Assembly (NCBI RefSeq): GCF_053078305.1
Contig: NZ_CP166879.1
Length of the DNA: 64,000 bases
Direction: 5' to 3' (one strand)
Below the pieces are notes generated by a model. That model searched no databases, had not been told where the DNA came from, and saw nothing but the letters and a program-made list of their open reading frames with translations. Every line of letters begins with the position of its first letter. Positions within the stretch are counted from its first letter, which is position 1. Below are positions 2,324 through 35,101 of the stretch, one piece after another. The position numbers and the translations under genes are program-made.

Positions 2324-3796
2324 ATGGTACCTGTGGTCGCGCTTGTCGGGCGCCCTAACGTAGGAAAATCCACGTTATTTAACCGTCTAACTCGCACCCG
2401 AGATGCGCTGGTTGCGGATTTCCCGGGTCTGACTCGTGACCGTAAGTACGGTCGTGCGGAAATTGAAGGCCGTGAGTTTATCTGTATTGATACCGGCGGG
2501 ATTGATGGCACAGAAGACGGTGTAGAAACCCGCATGGCGGAACAGTCGCTGCTGGCGATTGAAGAAGCGGACGTCGTACTGTTTATGGTGGATGCGCGCG
2601 CGGGCCTGATGCCGGCAGATGAAGCGATTGCCAAACATCTGCGCTCCCGTGAAAAACCGACCTTCCTGGTGGCAAACAAAACTGACGGTCTGGATCCCGA
2701 TCAGGCAGTGGTTGATTTCTACTCGCTTGGTTTAGGTGAAATCTACCCGATCGCCGCGTCTCACGGTCGTGGCGTATTAAGTCTGCTGGAGCATGTGCTA
2801 CTGCCGTGGATGGAAGATCTCGCACCGCAAGAGGAAGTCGACGAAGACGCTGAATACTGGGCGCAATTTGAAGCGGAAGAGAACGGCGAAGAAGAAGAGG
2901 AAGACGACTTCGACCCGCAAAGTCTGCCGATCAAACTGGCGATTGTGGGTCGTCCGAACGTAGGTAAGTCTACACTCACTAACCGTATTCTTGGTGAAGA
3001 GCGCGTTGTTGTTTATGACATGCCTGGTACGACGCGTGACAGTATCTACATTCCAATGGAACGCGATGGACGTGAGTATGTGCTCATTGACACCGCTGGC
3101 GTACGTAAACGCGGCAAAATCACCGATGCTGTAGAGAAATTCTCCGTAATCAAAACGTTGCAGGCCATTGAAGACGCCAACGTGGTGATGTTAGTGATTG
3201 ATGCGCGCGAAGGTATTTCCGATCAGGATCTCTCGCTGCTGGGCTTTATTCTCAATAGTGGGCGCTCACTTGTCATTGTGGTGAATAAGTGGGATGGCCT
3301 GAGTCAGGAAGTGAAAGAGCAGGTGAAAGAAACGCTGGACTTCCGTCTGGGCTTTATCGATTTTGCTCGTGTGCACTTTATCTCTGCCTTGCACGGCAGT
3401 GGTGTTGGTAACTTGTTTGAATCAGTACGTGAAGCGTATGACAGCTCCACCCGTCGTGTGGGGACCTCTATGCTGACGCGCATCATGACGATGGCTGTTG
3501 AAGATCACCAACCGCCGCTGGTACGCGGTCGTCGTGTGAAGCTGAAATATGCACACGCCGGTGGTTATAATCCGCCGATTGTGGTGATTCACGGTAATCA
3601 GGTGAAAGACCTGCCTGATTCCTACAAGCGTTACTTGATGAACTACTTCCGCAAATCGCTGGACGTAATGGGATCGCCGATTCGTATTCAGTTCAAAGAA
3701 GGGGAAAACCCGTATGCGAACAAGCGTAACACCCTGACGCCAACCCAGATGCGTAAACGTAAGCGTCTGATGAAGCACATCAAGAAAAATAAATAA
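2324..3796 (+). CDS. der: Der/EngA, ribosome-associated double GTPase
   Basis: Two P-loops (GRPNVGKS twice), KH-like C-terminus; true ATG at 2324 (track ORF begins at an upstream in-frame codon, 2285). Confidence 0.95.
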
Positions 3797-3864
3797 TTAT
3801 CCGTAAGTATTTTATCTGCCATTCCCTCTATGAATGTAGAGGGGTGGCTACCGGAGGAATTCAT

Positions 3865-5477
<1,613 letters not shown>

Positions 5478-5519
5478 TTATTCAGTCGATAGTAACCCGC
5501 CCTTCGGGGATAGCAAGCA

Positions 5520-5570
5520 TTTTTTGCAAAAAGGGGTAGATGCAATCGGTTACGCTCTGTATAATGCCGC
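5520..5570 (+). promoter_or_regulatory. guaBA promoter region with candidate PurR-box-like element
   Basis: TATAAT at 5560..5565 about 44 bp upstream of the guaB ATG; weak -35; atgcaatcggttacgc (5540..5555) matches the 16-bp pur-box palindrome at about 11/16. Confidence 0.45.
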
Positions 5571-5608
5571 GGCAATATTTATTAACCACTCTGGTCGAGA
5601 TATTGCCC

Positions 5609-7075
5609 ATGCTACGTATCGCTAAAGAAGCTCTGACGTTTGACGACGTTCTCCTCGTTCCTGCTCATTCTACTGTTCTGCCGAATACTGCTGACCTCAG
5701 CACCCAGCTGACGAAAACTATTCGTCTGAATATCCCTATGCTTTCCGCAGCAATGGATACCGTAACGGAAGCGCGCCTGGCTATTGCTCTGGCTCAGGAA
5801 GGCGGTATCGGCTTTATCCACAAAAACATGTCCATTGAACGCCAGGCAGAAGAAGTTCGCCGTGTGAAAAAACACGAATCTGGCGTGGTGACTGATCCGC
5901 AGACTGTTCTGCCAACCACGACGCTGCGCGAAGTGAAAGAACTGACCGAGCGTAACGGTTTTGCGGGCTATCCGGTCGTTACCGAAGAAAACGAACTGGT
6001 GGGTATTATCACCGGTCGTGACGTGCGTTTTGTTACCGACCTGAACCAGCCGGTTAGCGTTTACATGACGCCGAAAGAGCGTCTGGTCACCGTGCGTGAA
6101 GGTGAAGCCCGTGAAGTGGTGCTGGCAAAAATGCACGAAAAACGCGTTGAAAAAGCGCTGGTGGTTGATGACGAATTCCACCTGATCGGCATGATCACCG
6201 TGAAAGATTTCCAGAAAGCGGAACGTAAACCGAACGCCTGTAAAGACGAGCAAGGCCGTCTGCGTGTTGGTGCTGCAGTTGGCGCAGGTGCGGGTAACGA
6301 AGAGCGTGTTGACGCGCTGGTTGCCGCTGGCGTTGACGTTCTGCTGATCGACTCCTCCCACGGTCACTCAGAAGGCGTTTTGCAGCGTATCCGTGAAACC
6401 CGTGCTAAATATCCGGATCTGCAAATCATCGGCGGCAACGTGGCAACAGCTGCAGGTGCACGCGCTCTGGCAGAAGCTGGTTGCAGCGCGGTTAAAGTCG
6501 GTATCGGCCCTGGTTCTATCTGTACGACTCGTATCGTTACTGGCGTAGGTGTTCCGCAGATCACTGCCGTTGCTGACGCAGTTGAAGCCCTGGAAGGCAC
6601 CGGTATTCCGGTTATCGCAGATGGTGGTATTCGCTTCTCCGGCGACATCGCCAAAGCTATCGCCGCTGGCGCAAGCGCGGTGATGGTAGGTTCCATGCTG
6701 GCGGGTACTGAAGAATCTCCGGGTGAAATCGAACTCTACCAGGGCCGTTCTTACAAATCTTACCGTGGTATGGGTTCCCTGGGCGCGATGTCCAAAGGTT
6801 CCTCTGACCGTTATTTCCAGAGCGATAACGCTGCCGACAAACTGGTGCCGGAAGGTATCGAAGGTCGCGTAGCTTATAAAGGTCGCCTGAAAGAGATCAT
6901 TCACCAGCAGATGGGCGGCCTGCGCTCCTGTATGGGTTTGACCGGCTGTGGTACTATCGACGAACTGCGTACTAAAGCGGAGTTTGTACGTATCAGCGGT
7001 GCGGGCATTCAGGAAAGCCACGTTCACGACGTGACCATTACTAAAGAGTCCCCGAACTACCGTCTGGGCTCCTGA
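5609..7075 (+). CDS. guaB: IMP dehydrogenase
   Basis: 488 aa from ATG 5609 ([21 protein letters not shown]...), CBS and catalytic GSICTT motif; track ORF is N-extended to 5540. Confidence 0.96.
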
Positions 7076-7082
7076 TTCTCTT

Positions 7083-7103
7083 CGCCCGACTTCATGTCGG
7101 GCG
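7083..7103 (+). other. GC hairpin in guaB-guaA spacer
   Basis: cgcccgac ttcat gtcgggcg inverted repeat followed by atttatatt; possible intra-operon attenuator or RNA processing site. Confidence 0.3.
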
Positions 7104-7143
7104 ATTTATATTATCTGTTTCACTTGCCTCGGAATAAGCGTCA

Positions 7144-8721
7144 ATGACGGAAAACATTCATAAGCATCGCATCCTCATTCTGGACTTCGGTTCTCAGTAC
7201 ACTCAACTGGTTGCGCGCCGCGTGCGTGAGCTGGGTGTTTACTGCGAACTGTGGGCGTGGGATGTGACAGAAGCACAAATTCGTGACTTCAATCCAAGCG
7301 GCATTATTCTTTCCGGCGGCCCGGAAAGTACTACTGAAGAAAACAGTCCGCGTGCGCCGCAGTATGTCTTTGAAGCAGGCGTACCGGTATTCGGCGTTTG
7401 CTATGGCATGCAGACCATGGCAATGCAGTTGGGCGGTCACGTTGAAGCCTCTAACGAACGTGAATTTGGCTACGCGCAGGTTGAAGTCGTAAACGACAGC
7501 GCACTGGTTCGCGGTATCGAAGATGCGCTGACCGCAGACGGTAAACCGCTGCTCGATGTCTGGATGAGCCACGGCGATAAAGTTACCGCTATCCCGTCCG
7601 ACTTCGTCACCGTAGCCAGCACCGAAAGCTGCCCGTTTGCCATTATGGCTAACGAAGAAAAACGCTTCTATGGCGTACAGTTCCACCCGGAAGTGACTCA
7701 CACCCGCCAGGGTATGCGCATGCTGGAGCGTTTTGTGCGTGATATCTGCCAGTGTGAAGCCCTGTGGACGCCAGCGAAAATTATCGACGATGCTGTAGCT
7801 CGCATCCGCGAGCAGGTAGGCGACGATAAAGTCATCCTCGGCCTCTCTGGTGGTGTGGATTCCTCCGTAACCGCAATGCTGCTGCACCGCGCTATCGGTA
7901 AAAACCTGACTTGCGTATTCGTCGACAACGGCCTGCTGCGTCTCAACGAAGCAGAGCAGGTTCTGGATATGTTTGGCGATCACTTTGGTCTTAACATTGT
8001 TCACGTACCGGCAGAAGATCGCTTCCTGTCAGCGCTGGCTGGCGAAAACGATCCGGAAGCAAAACGTAAAATCATCGGTCGCGTTTTCGTTGAAGTATTC
8101 GATGAAGAAGCGCTGAAACTGGAAGACGTGAAGTGGCTGGCACAGGGCACCATCTACCCTGACGTTATCGAATCTGCGGCGTCTGCAACCGGTAAAGCAC
8201 ACGTCATCAAATCTCACCACAACGTGGGCGGCCTGCCGAAAGAGATGAAGATGGGCCTGGTTGAACCGCTGAAAGAGCTGTTCAAAGACGAAGTGCGTAA
8301 GATTGGTCTGGAGCTGGGTCTACCGTACGACATGCTGTACCGTCACCCGTTCCCGGGACCAGGCCTTGGCGTTCGTGTTCTGGGTGAAGTGAAGAAAGAG
8401 TACTGTGACCTGCTGCGCCGTGCTGACGCCATCTTCATTGAAGAACTGCGTAAAGCGGATCTGTACGACAAAGTCAGCCAGGCGTTCACCGTCTTCCTGC
8501 CAGTACGTTCCGTTGGCGTAATGGGCGATGGTCGTAAGTATGACTGGGTTGTCTCTCTGCGTGCTGTCGAAACCATCGACTTTATGACCGCACACTGGGC
8601 GCATCTGCCGTACGATTTCCTCGGTCGCGTTTCCAACCGCATTATCAATGAAGTGAACGGTATTTCCCGCGTGGTGTATGACATCAGCGGCAAGCCGCCA
8701 GCTACCATTGAGTGGGAGTGA
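7144..8721 (+). CDS. guaA: GMP synthase (glutamine-hydrolysing)
   Basis: 525 aa, class-I GATase N-terminus, [10 protein letters not shown]-loop. Confidence 0.96.
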
Positions 8722-8761
8722 GGCTATTATTTAAACTATTGTTTTATTTGATTTAGTGAGT

Positions 8762-8800
8762 GCCATTGATGATATTGACTGCATTATCAATGGCATTTTT
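8762..8800 (+). terminator. AT-rich hairpin plus T-run downstream of guaA
   Basis: gccattgat (8762..8770) pairs with atcaatggc (8786..8794), followed by attttt. Confidence 0.4.
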
Positions 8801-9105
8801 CATGGTATAAGGCCGACGCTGAATCGAAGATATAGCAAATACCATGTGACTGTATCAGCAAATGCCATGGTATCGACAACCGGGGGCATTGCAGCGCTGT
8901 GCTGATGCCATCGATGCCCGCTTTTAGTCAGAACACTCTCTCGACCCAAGCCTCCAGATCCTTAAATATGCGCCAGAGGAGCACCTCGTGATCGAAATTA
9001 TGAACAAGACAGCCGCCGCTCGGAATCGAAGTCTCCATATGGGTGAATAAGGTTTGCGGAAAACACGCTGAGAAAATAGAAAAGCGTCAATGAAGGGACA
9101 TAGCA

Positions 9106-10386
9106 ATGGCGATTAACGGAGTGGACGGTGTTAGCGCAGTCACCGTGGATGAACTACTCAAGCAAGGCCTTCGGATACCGAACTATCAACGCCCATACAG
9201 TTGGGAAGTATCGACCGCTCTACAACTGGTGGATGATCTCAGCGAAGCTCTTCGAGATACCGAAAGAAAAGATATTCCCTATGTTTTGGGTGCAATCATT
9301 CTTCACGATGATGGTGAGTATCTCAATGTAGTCGACGGACAGCAACGTCTGCTGACTTTGCGAATGATTCTTGCGGCCTTAGATCCGATAAATCACCAAA
9401 TTTCGGTGTCTGGTAACAGAGAAACCTCTGTCTCCCTGGTTTGGATAGAGCTTCAAAGGCGCCTGTCGCAGTTGGAAGATAAAAAAGAATTTTTGGATTT
9501 TATCTGTCACAAATGTCAGTTGGTGCGTATTGTGACGGACGATATTGATGAGGCATTCCGTGTCTTTGATTCCCAGAACTATCGCGGCAAACCGCTTGCC
9601 CCTCATGACTTGCTCAAAGCACACCACCTGCGCGAAATGCACGATGAGTCCGCTGCTATGAAAGTGGCTGTCGTTGAGGCTTGGGAAGCCGTAAATGATG
9701 AGGATCTGGACAGGCTTTTTTCTACTTTTTTATACCGGATATCCAAGTGGTCACGAGGAGAAAGCTCGCTCGAATTTGCTATTCGGGACATCGGTATGTT
9801 CAAGGGAATTTCATCACGATCCCACAGATCATTTTCGCCAAATCTGCGATATCACCTTGCAGCACAAGCCGCTATGCCACTTCTAAGTGCATGGGCGGTG
9901 TCCTCGACACATGATGCTCGAAATGCCGGGCGCAGCCGCTTTCAGCTTGATGCCCCGATAATCGCTGGGCGCTCATTTTTCGAGATGGTGGCATTCATGC
10001 TTGACGAATTGAAGATACTGGAAAAAGAGGTTATCGACAAAGGTTTCAAAAACTTTGGCCCATCTCAAAGTCGCTACCGCTACGTGTACGAATTGTTCAT
10101 TGCCGCTCTGCTTTGCTATACAAACAAGTTTGGCGATGAAGATGTGGATGAAGTGCGAAATAGGTTATTCGCATGGGCATATGCCTTGCGGGTCGAGTTA
10201 CTTCGTGTGCAATTTGTATCTGCTGACAACCGAGCTCGAGGTAAAAACGATGCAAATAAATCGCCTTTTGTTTTGCTACGCAACGCGATGACTGGAAGTG
10301 TTGTCCGCAAACTTCCAATAGCAAGTCAGCCATACAACGATAACCACGAAAAGGAACTCATTGCTTTTATCAAGGGGCTGCAATGA
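9106..10386 (+). CDS. DUF262 (ParB/Srx-like NTPase, GmrS-like) protein; accessory gene A
   Basis: 426 aa; IPNYQRPYSW motif and DGQQR (nt 9334..9348); later FRVFDSQNYRGKPL motif; no HNH/His-Me motif seen in the C-terminal ~270 aa; ATG 9106 with GGGA RBS; stop overlaps the next start (ATGA at 10383..10386). Confidence 0.8.
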   Translation: MAINGVDGVSAVTVDELLKQGLRIPNYQRPYSWEVSTALQLVDDLSEALRDTERKDIPYVLGAIILHDDGEYLNVVDGQQRLLTLRMILAALDPINHQISVSGNRETSVSLVWIELQRRLSQLEDKKEFLDFICHKCQLVRIVTDDIDEAFRVFDSQNYRGKPLAPHDLLKAHHLREMHDESAAMKVAVVEAWEAVNDEDLDRLFSTFLYRISKWSRGESSLEFAIRDIGMFKGISSRSHRSFSPNLRYHLAAQAAMPLLSAWAVSSTHDARNAGRSRFQLDAPIIAGRSFFEMVAFMLDELKILEKEVIDKGFKNFGPSQSRYRYVYELFIAALLCYTNKFGDEDVDEVRNRLFAWAYALRVELLRVQFVSADNRARGKNDANKSPFVLLRNAMTGSVVRKLPIASQPYNDNHEKELIAFIKGLQ

Positions 10387-12335
10387 GCAAGAAGGAGTTG
10401 AAACCCGAACTGCTAACAGTAGGCAAGCTATTCACGGACAATTATCTGATTCCTATTTATCAACGGAACTATGCTTGGCGGGCCGAACAGATTGAGCAAC
10501 TTATCAGCGATATTCAAGACTCGGTTGTTGGGGGCCAGGACGACTATTTTCTTGGAAACCTTGTTGTAATCAAGCGGGGTAGAGAGGACGAGTTCGAGGT
10601 CATAGATGGACAACAACGACTTACAACCCTCTATCTGCTTCTGACCTTCCTGGAGCAAGACGGTGAGGGTGGGAAGCCGTCGATTGGCCATGCAGGCCAC
10701 TTGCAATATGAGTCGCGTGCACGGGCAACGGAAGCCCTGCGGCGAGTAGCACAGGAGGCGGCTAAGGGGCACGTCCGACCGCAGGGCTCCACGAGTAATG
10801 CAGATGCTGGCATCCATGAAGGCTACAGCATCATCAATCAGTTCTTCAAACAAAATGAAACCCTTAATTGCTCACGCGAAAAATTCTCCGATTTCTTGCT
10901 AACGAAGGTTACTGTCGTCCGTGCCTCGCTGCCACCCAATACAGATCTCAATCGCTACTTCGAGATCATGAACACTCGTGGGCAGCAACTCAAGCAGGTT
11001 GATATTGTTAAGGCTCGCCTGATGAGCAAGCTGCCCAATCAATATGAACGCGAATGCTTCGCCTGGGTTTGGGATGCCTGTGCTGAGATGGATTCTTATG
11101 TCCAGATGTCTCTGACCCGTGGTGACACCAGTTTGCGAAACAAAGTATTTGGCGATGAATGGTCCTGGCTGGAGGTGACCAGCTTCGCGTCGTTAATGGA
11201 AAGTCGTCCGCAATCCGGCATCAATTCTTCAAGGCAATCCTCCGAAGGGGTATCGTTGTCCTTGGATGAGGCGTTGTCAAAATACGCTAAAGAGATCGAG
11301 TCAAATTCCACTGAAGACGAGGGCAACGAGCGGTTTCGTTCGACTATTGAGTTTCCGGCCTTTCTGCTACACGTTCTAAGAATTATGAAAGGCGATGAGG
11401 TCGAAGACGAAGGCCAGCTTGACGACAAACGCCTCATCAAGTCATTTGACGACGCTGTAAATAATGTACCCGATGCTAAAGCCGATTGGGTGCGTAACTT
11501 TACATTCATGCTCCTCAAGTGCCGCAACCTCTTCGATGGCTTCATTTTGAAGCGTCAATTCACGGCGAACATCGGTGACGATGGCGATTGGTCTCTCCAG
11601 CGATTGAAGAAAGGCGGCGCGGACAAGAAGCCAACCCCGACGTATATCCATGTTTTCTCGGCCAGCAATGGAAACTTAGAGGAGGACGGCGGTGCTGACC
11701 CACATACCCGAGATGTATTGCTGCTTCAGTCCATGCTTCGGATAACCTACACTTCTCCGCGAACGATGCACTGGATTACCAAAGTTCTTCGCTGGCTATC
11801 CGTCAAAGCCCCTCAAGACGCGAAACATGCGGATCTTGCCGATTTGTTGAAGGGGTATGCCCGCAGCAAGGTCAAAGAGACATTCCCCTTTGAGGAAGAT
11901 CAGCAACCACAAGGGTTTGGTATCAGCCGCATCGTCTTTTCGTATCTCGACTATCTTCTGTTGAGCGATTCCTCAAAACGAGATTTCAAATTTCAGTTCA
12001 GAACTTCCATTGAGCACTTTTATCCACAGCATCCGGACAAAGAACAGTCGGGCGCGGTTGTTTCAGGTTCTAGCCTTAACCTGCTTGGCAACCTTGCGCT
12101 CGTAAGCGTCAGCGCGAACTCAAAATTCAGCAATAGCCTTCCCAGAGCGAAGGCCGAAAACTTCAAGGATACGATTGAACTTCAAAGTCCCAAGCTCAAG
12201 AGAATGGCGGAAATCACTCGAAATACAAGCTGGGACGATCAGCAGATAACAGCTCATCATGAAGAGATGGTGACATTGCTTCGTGATGATGTAAGTCTGG
12301 TGGAGGCAAGCGGAAGATCCTACCCGGGGCGTTGA
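10383..12335 (+). CDS. DUF262-DUF1524 protein (GmrSD/SspE/BrxU-family type IV restriction endonuclease-like); accessory gene B
   Basis: 650 aa; N-terminal IPIYQRNYAW plus DGQQR (10605..10619) plus FEIMNTRGQQL; C-terminal His-Me finger motifs SIEHFYPQHP (12009..12038) and NLLGNLALVSVSANSKFSN (about 12072..12128). Confidence 0.85.
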   Translation: MSKKELKPELLTVGKLFTDNYLIPIYQRNYAWRAEQIEQLISDIQDSVVGGQDDYFLGNLVVIKRGREDEFEVIDGQQRLTTLYLLLTFLEQDGEGGKPSIGHAGHLQYESRARATEALRRVAQEAAKGHVRPQGSTSNADAGIHEGYSIINQFFKQNETLNCSREKFSDFLLTKVTVVRASLPPNTDLNRYFEIMNTRGQQLKQVDIVKARLMSKLPNQYERECFAWVWDACAEMDSYVQMSLTRGDTSLRNKVFGDEWSWLEVTSFASLMESRPQSGINSSRQSSEGVSLSLDEALSKYAKEIESNSTEDEGNERFRSTIEFPAFLLHVLRIMKGDEVEDEGQLDDKRLIKSFDDAVNNVPDAKADWVRNFTFMLLKCRNLFDGFILKRQFTANIGDDGDWSLQRLKKGGADKKPTPTYIHVFSASNGNLEEDGGADPHTRDVLLLQSMLRITYTSPRTMHWITKVLRWLSVKAPQDAKHADLADLLKGYARSKVKETFPFEEDQQPQGFGISRIVFSYLDYLLLSDSSKRDFKFQFRTSIEHFYPQHPDKEQSGAVVSGSSLNLLGNLALVSVSANSKFSNSLPRAKAENFKDTIELQSPKLKRMAEITRNTSWDDQQITAHHEEMVTLLRDDVSLVEASGRSYPGR

Positions 12336-12553
12336 CTTCTTTGAATAACCGCTTTTGGACGAATGTCCCTTGTGGAGTGCAAGTTGTCAGTTTAAAAGTG
12401 TTTTGCGTCGGGCGACACGATCAGTACAGCTCCCAGGTTTTTTTACCATGGTATTTTGTGTGGTATCGACATGCAAAGATAATGCTATTTTGTTGATTTT
12501 ATAGTGTTTTAAGGCGGCATTGATCATCGAGTGGGAATAAACCCTGTACATAT

Positions 12554-12594
12554 TGCTGAAGTTTTCTTTTCGGATAAAACTTCAGCAGATTTTC
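12554..12594 (+). terminator. perfect 12-bp-stem hairpin downstream of the accessory operon
   Basis: tgctgaagtttt (12554..12565) is the exact reverse complement of aaaacttcagca (12576..12587), 10-nt loop, then GATTTTC; a T8 run follows at 12622..12629. Confidence 0.45.
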
Positions 12595-12686
12595 ACAGCA
12601 AACCCCTCTTATCTCTGGAGGTTTTTTTTACGCAAATTAAAAACCCATAACTCTCACGAATCATGGGCTTTGTGGTAGAAAGACGA

Positions 12687-13226
12687 TTAATTAAACCAAC
12701 CGTCCGATTTATTCTCTTCTGCTTTACCCACGCTTTTCATCAAATCGCGACCGCCTTCTGTCACATTTCTGTTAGCGTCAGCTTCAGATTGCACGACATC
12801 AGTTTGCGCGGCTTTGTGCTTCAGCTCCTGGTCGATAAACTCGTTCTCTCGCTTAACGCGGGCTTCTTCTTTCGCCAGCGCCAGCTTTTGTTTCTGAATC
12901 TCTAAGCTGCGCAGCTCATCTTCATAACTTTGATCGCGTTTTTTATCCGCGGTGGCTTCGGCGTCCAGTTTATCCTGACGAGCTTTCTTATCCGCTGCTG
13001 CTGCCGCCGCTCTTTTGTTAGCGGCGGCCTGGGCATTTGCGCGACGTTGCTTCTCTTGCTGGATTTCCCTGTTGCGCTCCGCGACCCATTCGTCATGCTG
13101 CCTTTGCTCTTCATTTTTACCTTGCTGTTCCGCTTCTGCGACAGCAGAGAGTTGATCCTGCAATGATGAGGCGATAGCCGGATAGCTTAAGGAGACCAAG
13201 ATGGCGCAAAGAAAAACTTTCTTCAT
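12687..13226 (-). CDS. yfgI: YfgI, secreted coiled-coil protein
   Basis: 179 aa, signal peptide, K/E/Q-rich; recognised as YfgI. Confidence 0.9.
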   Translation of the reverse strand: MKKVFLCAILVSLSYPAIASSLQDQLSAVAEAEQQGKNEEQRQHDEWVAERNREIQQEKQRRANAQAAANKRAAAAAADKKARQDKLDAEATADKKRDQSYEDELRSLEIQKQKLALAKEEARVKRENEFIDQELKHKAAQTDVVQSEADANRNVTEGGRDLMKSVGKAEENKSDGWFN

Positions 13227-33385: not shown

Positions 33386-35101
33386 TTACTTCAGCGGCGA
33401 ACGGTTACGATCAATGCCGTAGCGTTCGATCTCTTTATACGGCACGGTTTTTGACTGGCGCTTGCGCACATCAACCAGCGTCACACGGTCGGTACAGGAG
33501 TAGCAGGGATCAAGGCTACCGATAATCAGCGGTGCGTCAGAAACGGTATTGCCGCGTAGCATGTAACGCAGCACCGGCCAGTTGGCGTAGGTGGCGGCAC
33601 GACAGCGCCAGCGGAACAATTTTTGATTATCACCGAGCATGCTCCAGTGCACGTCTTCACCGCGTGGCGCTTCAACAAAGCCCAGCGCGAATGCGTGAGG
33701 TTTATAGCTAAAGCCTTCGGTCAGCAGTGGGGTATCCGGCATGTTGTCGAGAGCAAATTCCAGCATTGCCAGCGAATCAAACGTCTCTTTGACACGGACC
33801 ATCACGCGGGAGAAAACATCGCCGCCGGTGAAGGTAAACAGTGTTTTTGGAATATTGCCGTAGTCGGCATAGGGGTGATCAAAGCGCAAATCACGGGCAA
33901 AACCACTGCCGCGGATCAGCGGCCCTACATGGCTATATTCACGGGCGATTTGTCGGTCGAGAATGCCAATGCCCTGAGTGCGTTGTTCCATATTCGGCGT
34001 AGCAAGCAGCATCTCTACCAGCTCCGACACGTCGGCGCGCATCTCGCGCACCAGTTTCAGCGTTTGCAGACGTTGCTCTTTGAGAATATCGCGGCGAACA
34101 CCACCAATCAGATTCAGACCGTAGGTTTTACGCGACCCGGTCAGCAATTCCGCCATCGTCATCGACTTTTCCCGCACGCGGAAAAATTGCATAAAGCCGG
34201 TATCAAAACCAACAAAATGGCAGGAGAGGCCAAGATTGAGCAAATGACTGTGTAGCCGTTCGACTTCCAGCAGAATCGAGCGAATGGTATGCGCTCGTTG
34301 CGGCACCTCAATCCCCAGTGCATTTTCAACCGAGTTGGTATAGGCCACACTGTGGGCAAAACCGCAAATCCCACACACGCGGTCCGATAAGAAGGTCACT
34401 TCGTTGTAGCCCATCCGCGTTTCTGCCAGTTTCTCCATGCCGCGATGGACATAAAACAGACGGTAATCAGCATCGACAATTTGCTCGCCATCCACAAACA
34501 AGCGGAAGTGACCCGGTTCATCGGAGGTGATATGCAGCGGGCCGACAGGGATCACCCGCGCATCGCTGTTGCCCTCATTGATAAACGGATACGTTTCGGA
34601 ATCAGTCGTCGGTTCAGGGCGCAGTCGATAATCCATCGCATCTTTGCGCAGCGGATGCATATCTTCCGGCCAGTCATCGGGCAACACCAGGCGACGCTGA
34701 TCCGGCAGGCCAACCGGAATCAGCCCGTACATATCGCGAATTTCTCGCTCGCCCCAGACCGCGGCAGGGACGCGCGGTGTGACTGACGGAAACTCCCGAC
34801 TGTCGGCATCGACCAGCGCCTTCACCACAATCCAGCATTTTTCGGCCCCTTCCATTGAAAGGGCATAATAAACCGCGTAATGACCGTTAAGTGTCCGCTC
34901 GTCGTTGCCAAACAGGACCGGAAGCCAGCCATCATGTTGATAATAAAGATACTGTACAACGTCAGGCAGCAGATTGATTTTCACCGTAATGGTGACCTGT
35001 TCAGGCGTTTGTCGCTCTTCATCCAGCACCGCGCCGGGGAACTGCGTTTTCAGGGCGGCGAGAATCGCTTCGCCACGATTTGACGATGAATTAACGTTCA
35101 C
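33386..35101 (-). CDS. hyfG: hydrogenase-4 large [NiFe] subunit (HycE/NuoCD-like)
   Basis: [12 protein letters not shown]-terminal Ni-ligand motif and [10 protein letters not shown]-terminal motif; no in-frame ATG near the N-terminus, so GTG at 35101 proposed (overlaps the hyfF 3' end); exact start uncertain. Confidence 0.85.

Follow-up and report, generated by a model that had tools for sequence, protein, structure and literature searches.

In a stretch of 64,000 nucleotides of contig NZ_CP166879.1 (NCBI RefSeq assembly GCF_053078305.1), hereafter called the window, two genes are located between guaA and yfgI, which are referred to as gene A and gene B. Alignment with Escherichia coli K-12 MG1655 revealed that homology ends at the guaA stop codon (8721) and restarts at 12684, three bases ahead of the yfgI stop codon; the guaA-yfgI spacer thus comprises 3,962 bp in the window and 92 bp in K-12 MG1655. 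Outside this interval, the window and K-12 are collinear, with 98.5-99% identity. Both genes are encoded on the + strand, share an ATGA stop/start overlap at 10383..10386 and, judged from this overlap, are translationally coupled. The GC content of the cassette is about 0.44-0.52 compared with 0.52-0.58 for guaBA. The segment is an accessory, horizontally acquired two-gene operon: a megablast search detected it in 81 of 5,426 complete E. coli genomes, while 4,568 of these genomes carry the empty K-12-type junction and about 14% carry neither. An earlier note on this DNA, which was made from the sequence alone, had described a two-gene cassette at this place, and its open reading frames, coordinates and ATGA overlap are exactly as it had given them. 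Its further statements that the cassette is slightly richer in AT than its surroundings, that it is accessory rather than part of the core genome and that the rest of the window follows K-12 are borne out as well by the GC values, the comparison of guaA-yfgI junctions and the alignment, save for a 48-bp indel in hyfG described below. The two genes very likely encode a member of the TgvAB/GmrS-GmrSD doublet family, whose members consist of a partner protein with a DUF262 domain and a DUF262-DUF1524 nuclease.

The product of gene A matches the Pfam families GmrSD_N/DUF262 (residues 19-175, E 1.3e-27) and DUF7834 (residues 186-414, E 5.6e-55), and this combination of domains is found in all of the best 120 relatives of gene A. 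The DUF262 domain, whose fold is that of a ParB/Srx-like NTPase, contains a YQR motif at residue 27, a DGQQR motif at residues 77-81 (9334..9348) and an FDSQN motif at residue 154. In an alignment of 69 diverse A-type sequences, Q28, R29, D77, G78, R81, F154, N158, R160 and G161 are invariant, and the conservation of these QR, DG..R and F..QN.RG positions fits the requirement for the DGQQR motif in TgvA (see below). An AlphaFold model built on the same number of diverse homologues (69; mean predicted local distance difference test score 92.8) consists of an alpha/beta DUF262 domain followed by a helical C-terminal domain (residues 183-425), which is all helical according to DSSP save for two isolated bridge residues. 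The model contains no beta-beta-alpha metal finger, and gene A thus lacks a nuclease domain. VC1767 (TgvA) of Vibrio cholerae also matches DUF7834 (E 7e-38); DUF7834 is thus the C-terminal domain of TgvA-type partners. No paper was found in the literature under the name DUF7834, and a Foldseek search of the model against the PDB returned no distinct fold match for this domain. It was considered whether DUF7834 is simply the linker domain of gene B; this idea was dropped, at least at the sequence level, since only the DUF262 domain aligns in a profile-profile comparison of the A and B families.

Gene B encodes a protein with a DUF262 domain, a helical linker and a DUF1524 His-Me finger. Pfam assigns residues 14-214 to GmrSD_N (E 2.2e-33) and residues 521-631 to GmrSD_C/DUF1524 (E 1.1e-13). 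The N-terminal domain possesses a YQR motif at residue 26, DGQQR at residues 75-79 (10605..10619) and FEIMN at residue 193, and the nuclease domain is marked by IEHFYPQ with E544 and H545 (12009 onward), followed by N570, N579 and N584. These five residues are invariant among 13 aligned B-type proteins including GmrSD2 of E. coli ECOR17, and E544/H545 align with E582/H583 of ECOR17 GmrSD2, which have been validated by mutation. The DUF262 signatures, both DGQQR motifs and the C-terminal His-Me finger had been named in the earlier note and are found at the positions given there.

Systems with this architecture have been named and tested twice. TgvAB, which consists of VC1767 and VC1766 encoded on the V. 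cholerae island VPI-2, was reported in two papers in 2024; TgvA is described there as a protein with a DUF262 domain only, and TgvB (VC1766) contains DUF262 and DUF1524 domains. It has been shown that neither TgvA nor TgvB provides protection alone, that the DGQQR motifs of both proteins as well as H571 and N602 of TgvB are essential and that phages T2 and T4 escape TgvAB via loss of hydroxymethylcytosine (hmC) glucosylation (PMC11411939; bioRxiv 10.1101/2024.04.05.588314). The second system is the GmrS1/GmrSD2 doublet of E. coli ECOR17, for which both genes are needed and whose defence is abolished by the E582A/H583A exchange. The doublet restricts T2 and T6 as well as T4 without ip2 and ip3; T4 Ip3 blocks it, and its overexpression is toxic (PMC12373910). 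For comparison with the cassette, the first 399 residues each of VC1766 and VC1767 were taken from Table S5 of Vizzarro et al., and the sequences of the ECOR17 proteins and of the single-chain enzyme CT596 GmrSD were reconstructed from the alignments in Silas et al. Gene A is 30.7% identical to ECOR17 GmrS1 (424 aligned positions, E 6e-56) and 25% identical to TgvA (377 aligned positions, E 1e-27); gene B shares 32.9% identity with ECOR17 GmrSD2 (674 aligned positions, E 1e-87) and 29% with the first 399 residues of TgvB (420 aligned positions, E 7e-36). Matches between A-type and B-type proteins, and those to CT596 GmrSD, are confined to some 70-95 N-terminal residues; for gene B and CT596 GmrSD, 95 N-terminal positions align with 36% identity (E 3.5e-9).

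The orthologue group itself has also been catalogued. In the closest E. coli genome (99.2% nucleotide identity), the pair is annotated as WP_001625659 and WP_001625657; gene A is identical to the former at 420 of 426 positions (98.6%) and gene B to the latter at 649 of 650 (99.8%). WP_001625659 belongs to cluster CLS_017 and WP_001625657 to CLS_016 (Silas et al. 2025, Supplementary Data 6, PMC12373910). The 20 commonest GmrSD clusters of enterobacteria were reported to form 12 single-gene and three two-gene systems (PMC12373910). Two of the latter are CLS_003/004, the ECOR17 type, and CLS_018/019; by elimination and from the accession lists, the third one is CLS_016/017. Furthermore, near-identical pairs from Shimwellia, a Klebsiella plasmid and Pectobacterium are listed as TgvAB homologues (Vizzarro et al. 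2024, Table S5, PMC11411939). The earlier note had presented the pair as a candidate undescribed system that could not be assigned to a named one. This did not hold: the architecture has been published as TgvAB and as GmrS1/GmrSD2, the orthologue group stands in the tables of both studies, and, essentially, the pair does match a characterised, named system, at the level of the family. Thus, the system is already known. The earlier reading of its likely function as type IV restriction-like defence against phages appears to be correct by analogy with these relatives. Gene A matches GmrS1 over its full length and SspE via the DUF262 region only. PADLOC 2.0 (2023) reports fragmentary matches of the pair to HEC-06, Orf5 and SspE, mostly within the first 90 or so residues; the HEC-06 profile, for instance, hits gene B in two to three fragments, the best of which spans residues 6-90. 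Naming the pair HEC-06, Orf5 or SspE was therefore rejected, because these matches are partial and run via the DUF262 region.

Gene A is immediately followed by gene B in every context that was opened, namely in E. coli, a Klebsiella IncFIB/IncFII plasmid, Kluyvera, Pseudoduganella, Bordetella avium, a Tn7-like transposon and other metagenomic contigs; this order was seen in eight contexts besides the window. The pair is kept together and in the same order from Enterobacterales to Betaproteobacteria, and the conservation of the pairing over such large evolutionary distances supports a joint function. The products of gene A and gene B very probably work together. The A-type family comprises 413 clusters (50% identity, E <= 1e-30), and relatives of gene B extend to Actinobacteria with 57-60% identity. 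A tblastn search with gene A against 50,697 phage records gave no match. The same DNA is present at about 95.6% identity on 468 plasmid records, 464 of which are from Klebsiella and 394 of which are predicted to be conjugative; gene B is identical to the Klebsiella plasmid copy at 626 of 650 positions. On the plasmids, the pair is accompanied by partition, Phd/YefM and umuDC genes. In metagenome contigs, the pair is found as cargo of a Tn7-like transposon with genes for a TnsA-like protein, an rve transposase, TniB and TniQ (locus 3104..13220, 89-91% identity). In Kluyvera GCA_046532915.1 (locus 5341..10001), gene A is disrupted, and homology restarts at window position 9239; the insert contains a DDE transposase gene and a gene for a class A beta-lactamase of 291 amino acids and has the appearance of a transposition unit with a resistance gene that inserted into the defence cassette.

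The two genes are part of a 3.8-kb module, which is bounded by two GAGTGGGA cores at the breakpoints of homology (Table 1).

Table 1. Features of the guaA-yfgI interval, with positions in the window
Feature	Position	Strand	Remarks
attL-like left junction, last 15 bp of guaA (ATTGAGTGGGAGTGA)	8707..8721	+	core GAGTGGGA at 8710..8717
Module leader, 384 bp	8722..9105	+	hairpin and T-run at 8758..8800; upstream stretch at about 8920..9105
Gene A	9106..10386	+	426 amino acids; putative TgvA/GmrS1-type partner
Gene B	10383..12335	+	650 amino acids; putative TgvB/GmrSD2-type nuclease subunit
attR-like right junction, imperfect direct repeat of the guaA 3' end (ATCGAGTGGGAATAA)	12526..12540	+	12 of 15 positions match; core GAGTGGGA at 12529..12536
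Native but diverged guaA-yfgI spacer	12541..12686		terminator-like hairpin at 12605..12621, then T-run

Comparison with K-12 places the left breakpoint at 8721, and comparisons with E. coli TUM13936, Klebsiella plasmids and Kluyvera place the right one at 12538, 12535 and 12543, respectively. Homology with the Klebsiella plasmids extends from 8707 to 12535 and thus includes the last 15 bp of guaA. The sequence past the right core (ACCCTGTACATAT) resembles the K-12 sequence past the guaA stop codon (ACCCTGCACTAT). Kluyvera sichuanensis and Providencia rettgeri likewise carry the module at guaA, with an identical type of left junction directly after the resident gene, and the genes downstream of the module in Kluyvera differ from those in E. 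coli. GAGTGGGA serves as att core in GIsul2, an island that targets guaA, and the use of guaA as attB has been described (PMC9376610). In addition, integrative mobilisable elements that carry defence systems (PIMEs) are known to attach at guaA (bioRxiv 10.64898/2026.01.12.698999); the text of this preprint mentions neither GmrSD nor TgvAB, and no link of the module to a specific PIME was found. In the E. coli strain XPFI_3_2 (NZ_CM146018.1), the guaA-yfgI junction holds a prophage with genes for a T7 gp14-like core protein, holins and an endolysin, the latter being interrupted by IS3. The E. coli junctions with neither the empty site nor the cassette, one of which is occupied by this prophage, indicate that the 3' end of guaA is a general integration hotspot.

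The module does not contain an integrase gene. Likewise, the CR2-sul2 unit has no integrase of its own, and, as in the module, GAGTGGGA cores are present at both ends of the CR2-sul2 unit/GIsul2, which use the 3' end of guaA as their site; PIMEs resemble the module in carrying a defence system. The cargo differs, being a restriction system in the module and sul2 in the CR2-sul2 unit. These similarities are read most simply if the cassette represents, or originated from, an att-flanked unit, which would be handled in trans by a GIsul2/PIME-type integrase like the CR2-sul2 unit; the module looks like either a unit that is moved in trans or what is left of an island integrated at guaA. A more far-reaching version, in which the module (8722..12540) is an autonomous defence cassette for GIsul2/PIME-type tyrosine integrases that is moved in trans and has a restriction specificity other than glucosyl-hmC, is speculative and, in our view, rather unlikely. 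If it were true, a trans-mobilised module would explain the occurrence of one TgvAB-type system at guaA of Escherichia, Kluyvera and Providencia and on hundreds of conjugative plasmids of Klebsiella.

The 16-bp hairpin of the module leader is located just past the guaA stop codon, is followed by a T-run and has a folding energy of -19.1 kcal/mol (z = -4.15). This structure probably takes the place of the bidirectional terminator that is native to guaA and yfgI and that persists as a diverged copy in the spacer behind the module. About 185 bp of upstream DNA accompany gene A and gene B in all contexts, and the promoter presumably lies there. In the Tn7-like transposon and other contigs, sharing starts between 8920 and 8956 and comprises the two genes and these 185 bp or so, and the att cores are absent; for the copy in the Tn7-like transposon, the shared window is about 8920..12375, which delimits the minimal functional unit including the upstream stretch. 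On the minus strand, an open reading frame of 60 amino acids with a TTG start codon lies antisense to the gene A leader (8924..9106) over the conserved upstream region and is probably spurious. Small antisense open reading frames have also been described for the ECOR17 doublet; these overlap the 3' part of GmrS1, not the leader (PMC12373910).

Elsewhere in the window, a segment of 48 bp (16 codons, in frame) in hyfG at about 33899..33946 is absent from K-12 MG1655 and is bordered by 8-bp direct repeats (TCACGGGC). It reflects either a slippage deletion in K-12 or an insertion in the strain from which the window derives, and it is the sole break in collinearity with K-12 besides the cassette. 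No match to Rfam was found anywhere in the window.

Taken together, the cassette is likely to be a type IV, modification-dependent restriction system of the GmrSD family that consists of two proteins in the manner of TgvAB and belongs to orthologue group CLS_017/CLS_016; by analogy with the tested relatives it probably functions in defence against phages. In such a system, judged from TgvAB and ECOR17 GmrS1/GmrSD2, neither gene product would be active alone, and the two proteins would probably form a hetero-oligomer. The nucleotide-binding motifs of both DUF262 domains would be needed for sensing of incoming modified DNA and for licensing of the gene B nuclease, which is predicted to cut the phage genome directly rather than to act by abortive infection. 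The likeliest substrate would be sugar-modified hmC DNA of T-even phages; that it is specifically glucosyl-hmC DNA is a plausible, still tentative, assignment by analogy. The identity to the tested systems amounts to only 25-33%, and the exact specificity may differ.

This low identity is at the same time one of several points that weigh against the proposed assignment. A promoter scan of the + strand upstream of gene A found no consensus sigma-70 site. NCBIfam contains no family for gene A or gene B, and neither NCBIfam nor PADLOC (2023) holds a dedicated model for the pair. Furthermore, the cassette stands alone without a surrounding type I restriction-modification (RM) locus, unlike its counterpart in V. 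cholerae; it is flanked by guaA and yfgI, and hsd genes are absent. Of tgvAB-like operons, 1,341 have been listed versus 79 that are embedded in type I RM operons, and embedding is the origin of the name and no requirement. The last point concerns activity. Silas et al. synthesised and tested representatives of all 15 groups, and among the 12 groups that had not already been characterised, five further ones were active on T-even phages (PMC12373910). Which five these are is shown as an image in Supplementary Fig. 8 and is not stated in the main text, the supplementary text, dataset 6 or the source-data listing. The legend of the next supplementary figure, which deals with further injected proteins on the new systems, names only CLS_011 and CLS_018/019 (PMC12373910), and CLS_016/017 may therefore have been inactive against T2, T4 and T6 in this assay.

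An alternative within the same family is that the CLS_016/017 branch recognises another target, such as plain hmC, arabinosyl-hmC, methylated bases or deazaguanine derivatives, and defends against phages or plasmids beyond the classical T-evens. Such a shift would be in line with the distance of 25-33% identity from the glucosyl-hmC-specific systems and with the variation among GmrSD relatives: hypomodified T4 is a further substrate of BrxU but not of CT596 GmrSD or the ECOR17 doublet, and SspE and DndI sense phosphorothioate. That only five of 12 other enterobacterial groups are active on T-evens points in the same direction, as does the frequency of the module on conjugative plasmids of Klebsiella, whose phage population is unlike that of E. 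coli. However, both tested two-protein members hit glucosylated T-even DNA, and the sequence holds no pointer to another modification, which makes a different target unlikely.

The carriage on plasmids could also be taken to suggest that the pair mainly serves its carrier element rather than phage defence, either in competition between plasmids or islands by cutting rival plasmids or as a toxic stabiliser in the manner of an addiction system. The numerous predicted conjugative plasmids with partition, Phd/YefM and umuDC genes next to the pair, its presence as cargo of a Tn7-like transposon and of the att-flanked guaA module and the gross toxicity of the ECOR17 homologue upon induction would be compatible with such a role. 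The tested homologues, however, confer direct protection against phage, with no obvious sign of abortive infection at low multiplicity of infection, and an antitoxin-like third gene is missing. Carriage by mobile elements is moreover the rule for ordinary defence systems and needs no separate explanation, and we consider a service to the carrier very unlikely.

It is still less probable that the pair is an SspE/DndI-type effector, which would sense phosphorothioate and depend on modification genes elsewhere in the genome. In the Foldseek search, the gene A model gave its best matches with DndI (9jfl, E 2e-5), SspE (7drr, E 3e-5) and BrxU, and the SspE profiles of PADLOC match the DUF262 domain. 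All of these structural matches are to DUF262/ParB-like proteins and have low TM-scores, those to DndI and SspE, with TM-scores of 0.2-0.3, are limited to the common DUF262 region, and sequence matches in the PDB comprise only about 60-90 N-terminal residues. In addition, no ssp or dnd genes adjoin the pair in any examined context, the rest of the window is K-12 backbone, and full-length homology exists with TgvAB and the ECOR17 doublet instead. Least probable of all is a decay of the cassette, which would then be what remains, without function, of a larger island integrated at guaA, as might be suspected from the absent integrase and from the Kluyvera genome in which gene A is broken by an insertion sequence element plus beta-lactamase insertion, because both open reading frames are intact with all catalytic motifs conserved, gene B is identical at 649 and 626 of 650 positions to its counterparts in the closest E. 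coli genome and on the Klebsiella plasmid, respectively, and intact pairs occur in hundreds of plasmids and many taxa.

The system contributes little by itself, since it has been catalogued and two members of its family have been tested by experiment. The CLS_016/017 branch is, however, widespread on conjugative plasmids of Klebsiella and sporadic in E. coli, and its phage range and any phage inhibitors acting on it would therefore bear on phage therapy against both. The packaging of the cassette is an example of how a small defence operon may exploit guaA for integration although it encodes no recombinase.

Among the known systems, single-chain GmrSD enzymes such as Eco CT596 GmrSD, Eco94GmrSD, BrxU/HEC-05 and HEC-06 have the same DUF262-linker-DUF1524 layout and motifs as gene B. 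They are modification-dependent restriction enzymes acting on T-even DNA and consist of one polypeptide, which forms homodimers in the case of BrxU. Gene B, in contrast, is always accompanied by a DUF262-DUF7834 partner, which is required by its tested relatives, and it is expected to be inactive alone by analogy with TgvB and GmrSD2. It shows no full-length similarity to the characterised single-chain enzymes, and BrxU was retrieved only as a weak fold match to the model of gene A.

TgvAB is closer to the cassette: TgvA combines DUF262 with DUF7834 and TgvB combines DUF262 with DUF1524, as do gene A and gene B, and the QR, DGQQR and FxxxN motifs as well as the H...N nuclease motif are common to both systems. 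Near-identical orthologues of the cassette are included in the authors' list of 1,341 tgvAB-like operons. The two systems differ in host and mobile element, and TgvAB is located within a type I RM operon, whereas the cassette is not.

The ECOR17 doublet GmrS1/GmrSD2 (CLS_003/CLS_004) is encoded in the same host species and has the same gene order, with a DUF262-only partner followed by a DUF262-linker-His-Me nuclease. It displays full-length homology to the cassette with an aligned catalytic E-H pair, and the paper describing it lists the orthologues of the cassette as the sister two-gene group CLS_016/017 (PMC12373910). In the same study, Ip1-10 did not reproducibly inhibit the newly active groups (PMC12373910). 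The cassette nevertheless forms a separate sequence cluster, its proteins comprise 426 and 650 amino acids compared with 483 and 680 for ECOR17, and its genomic site may be unlike that of the ECOR17 doublet.

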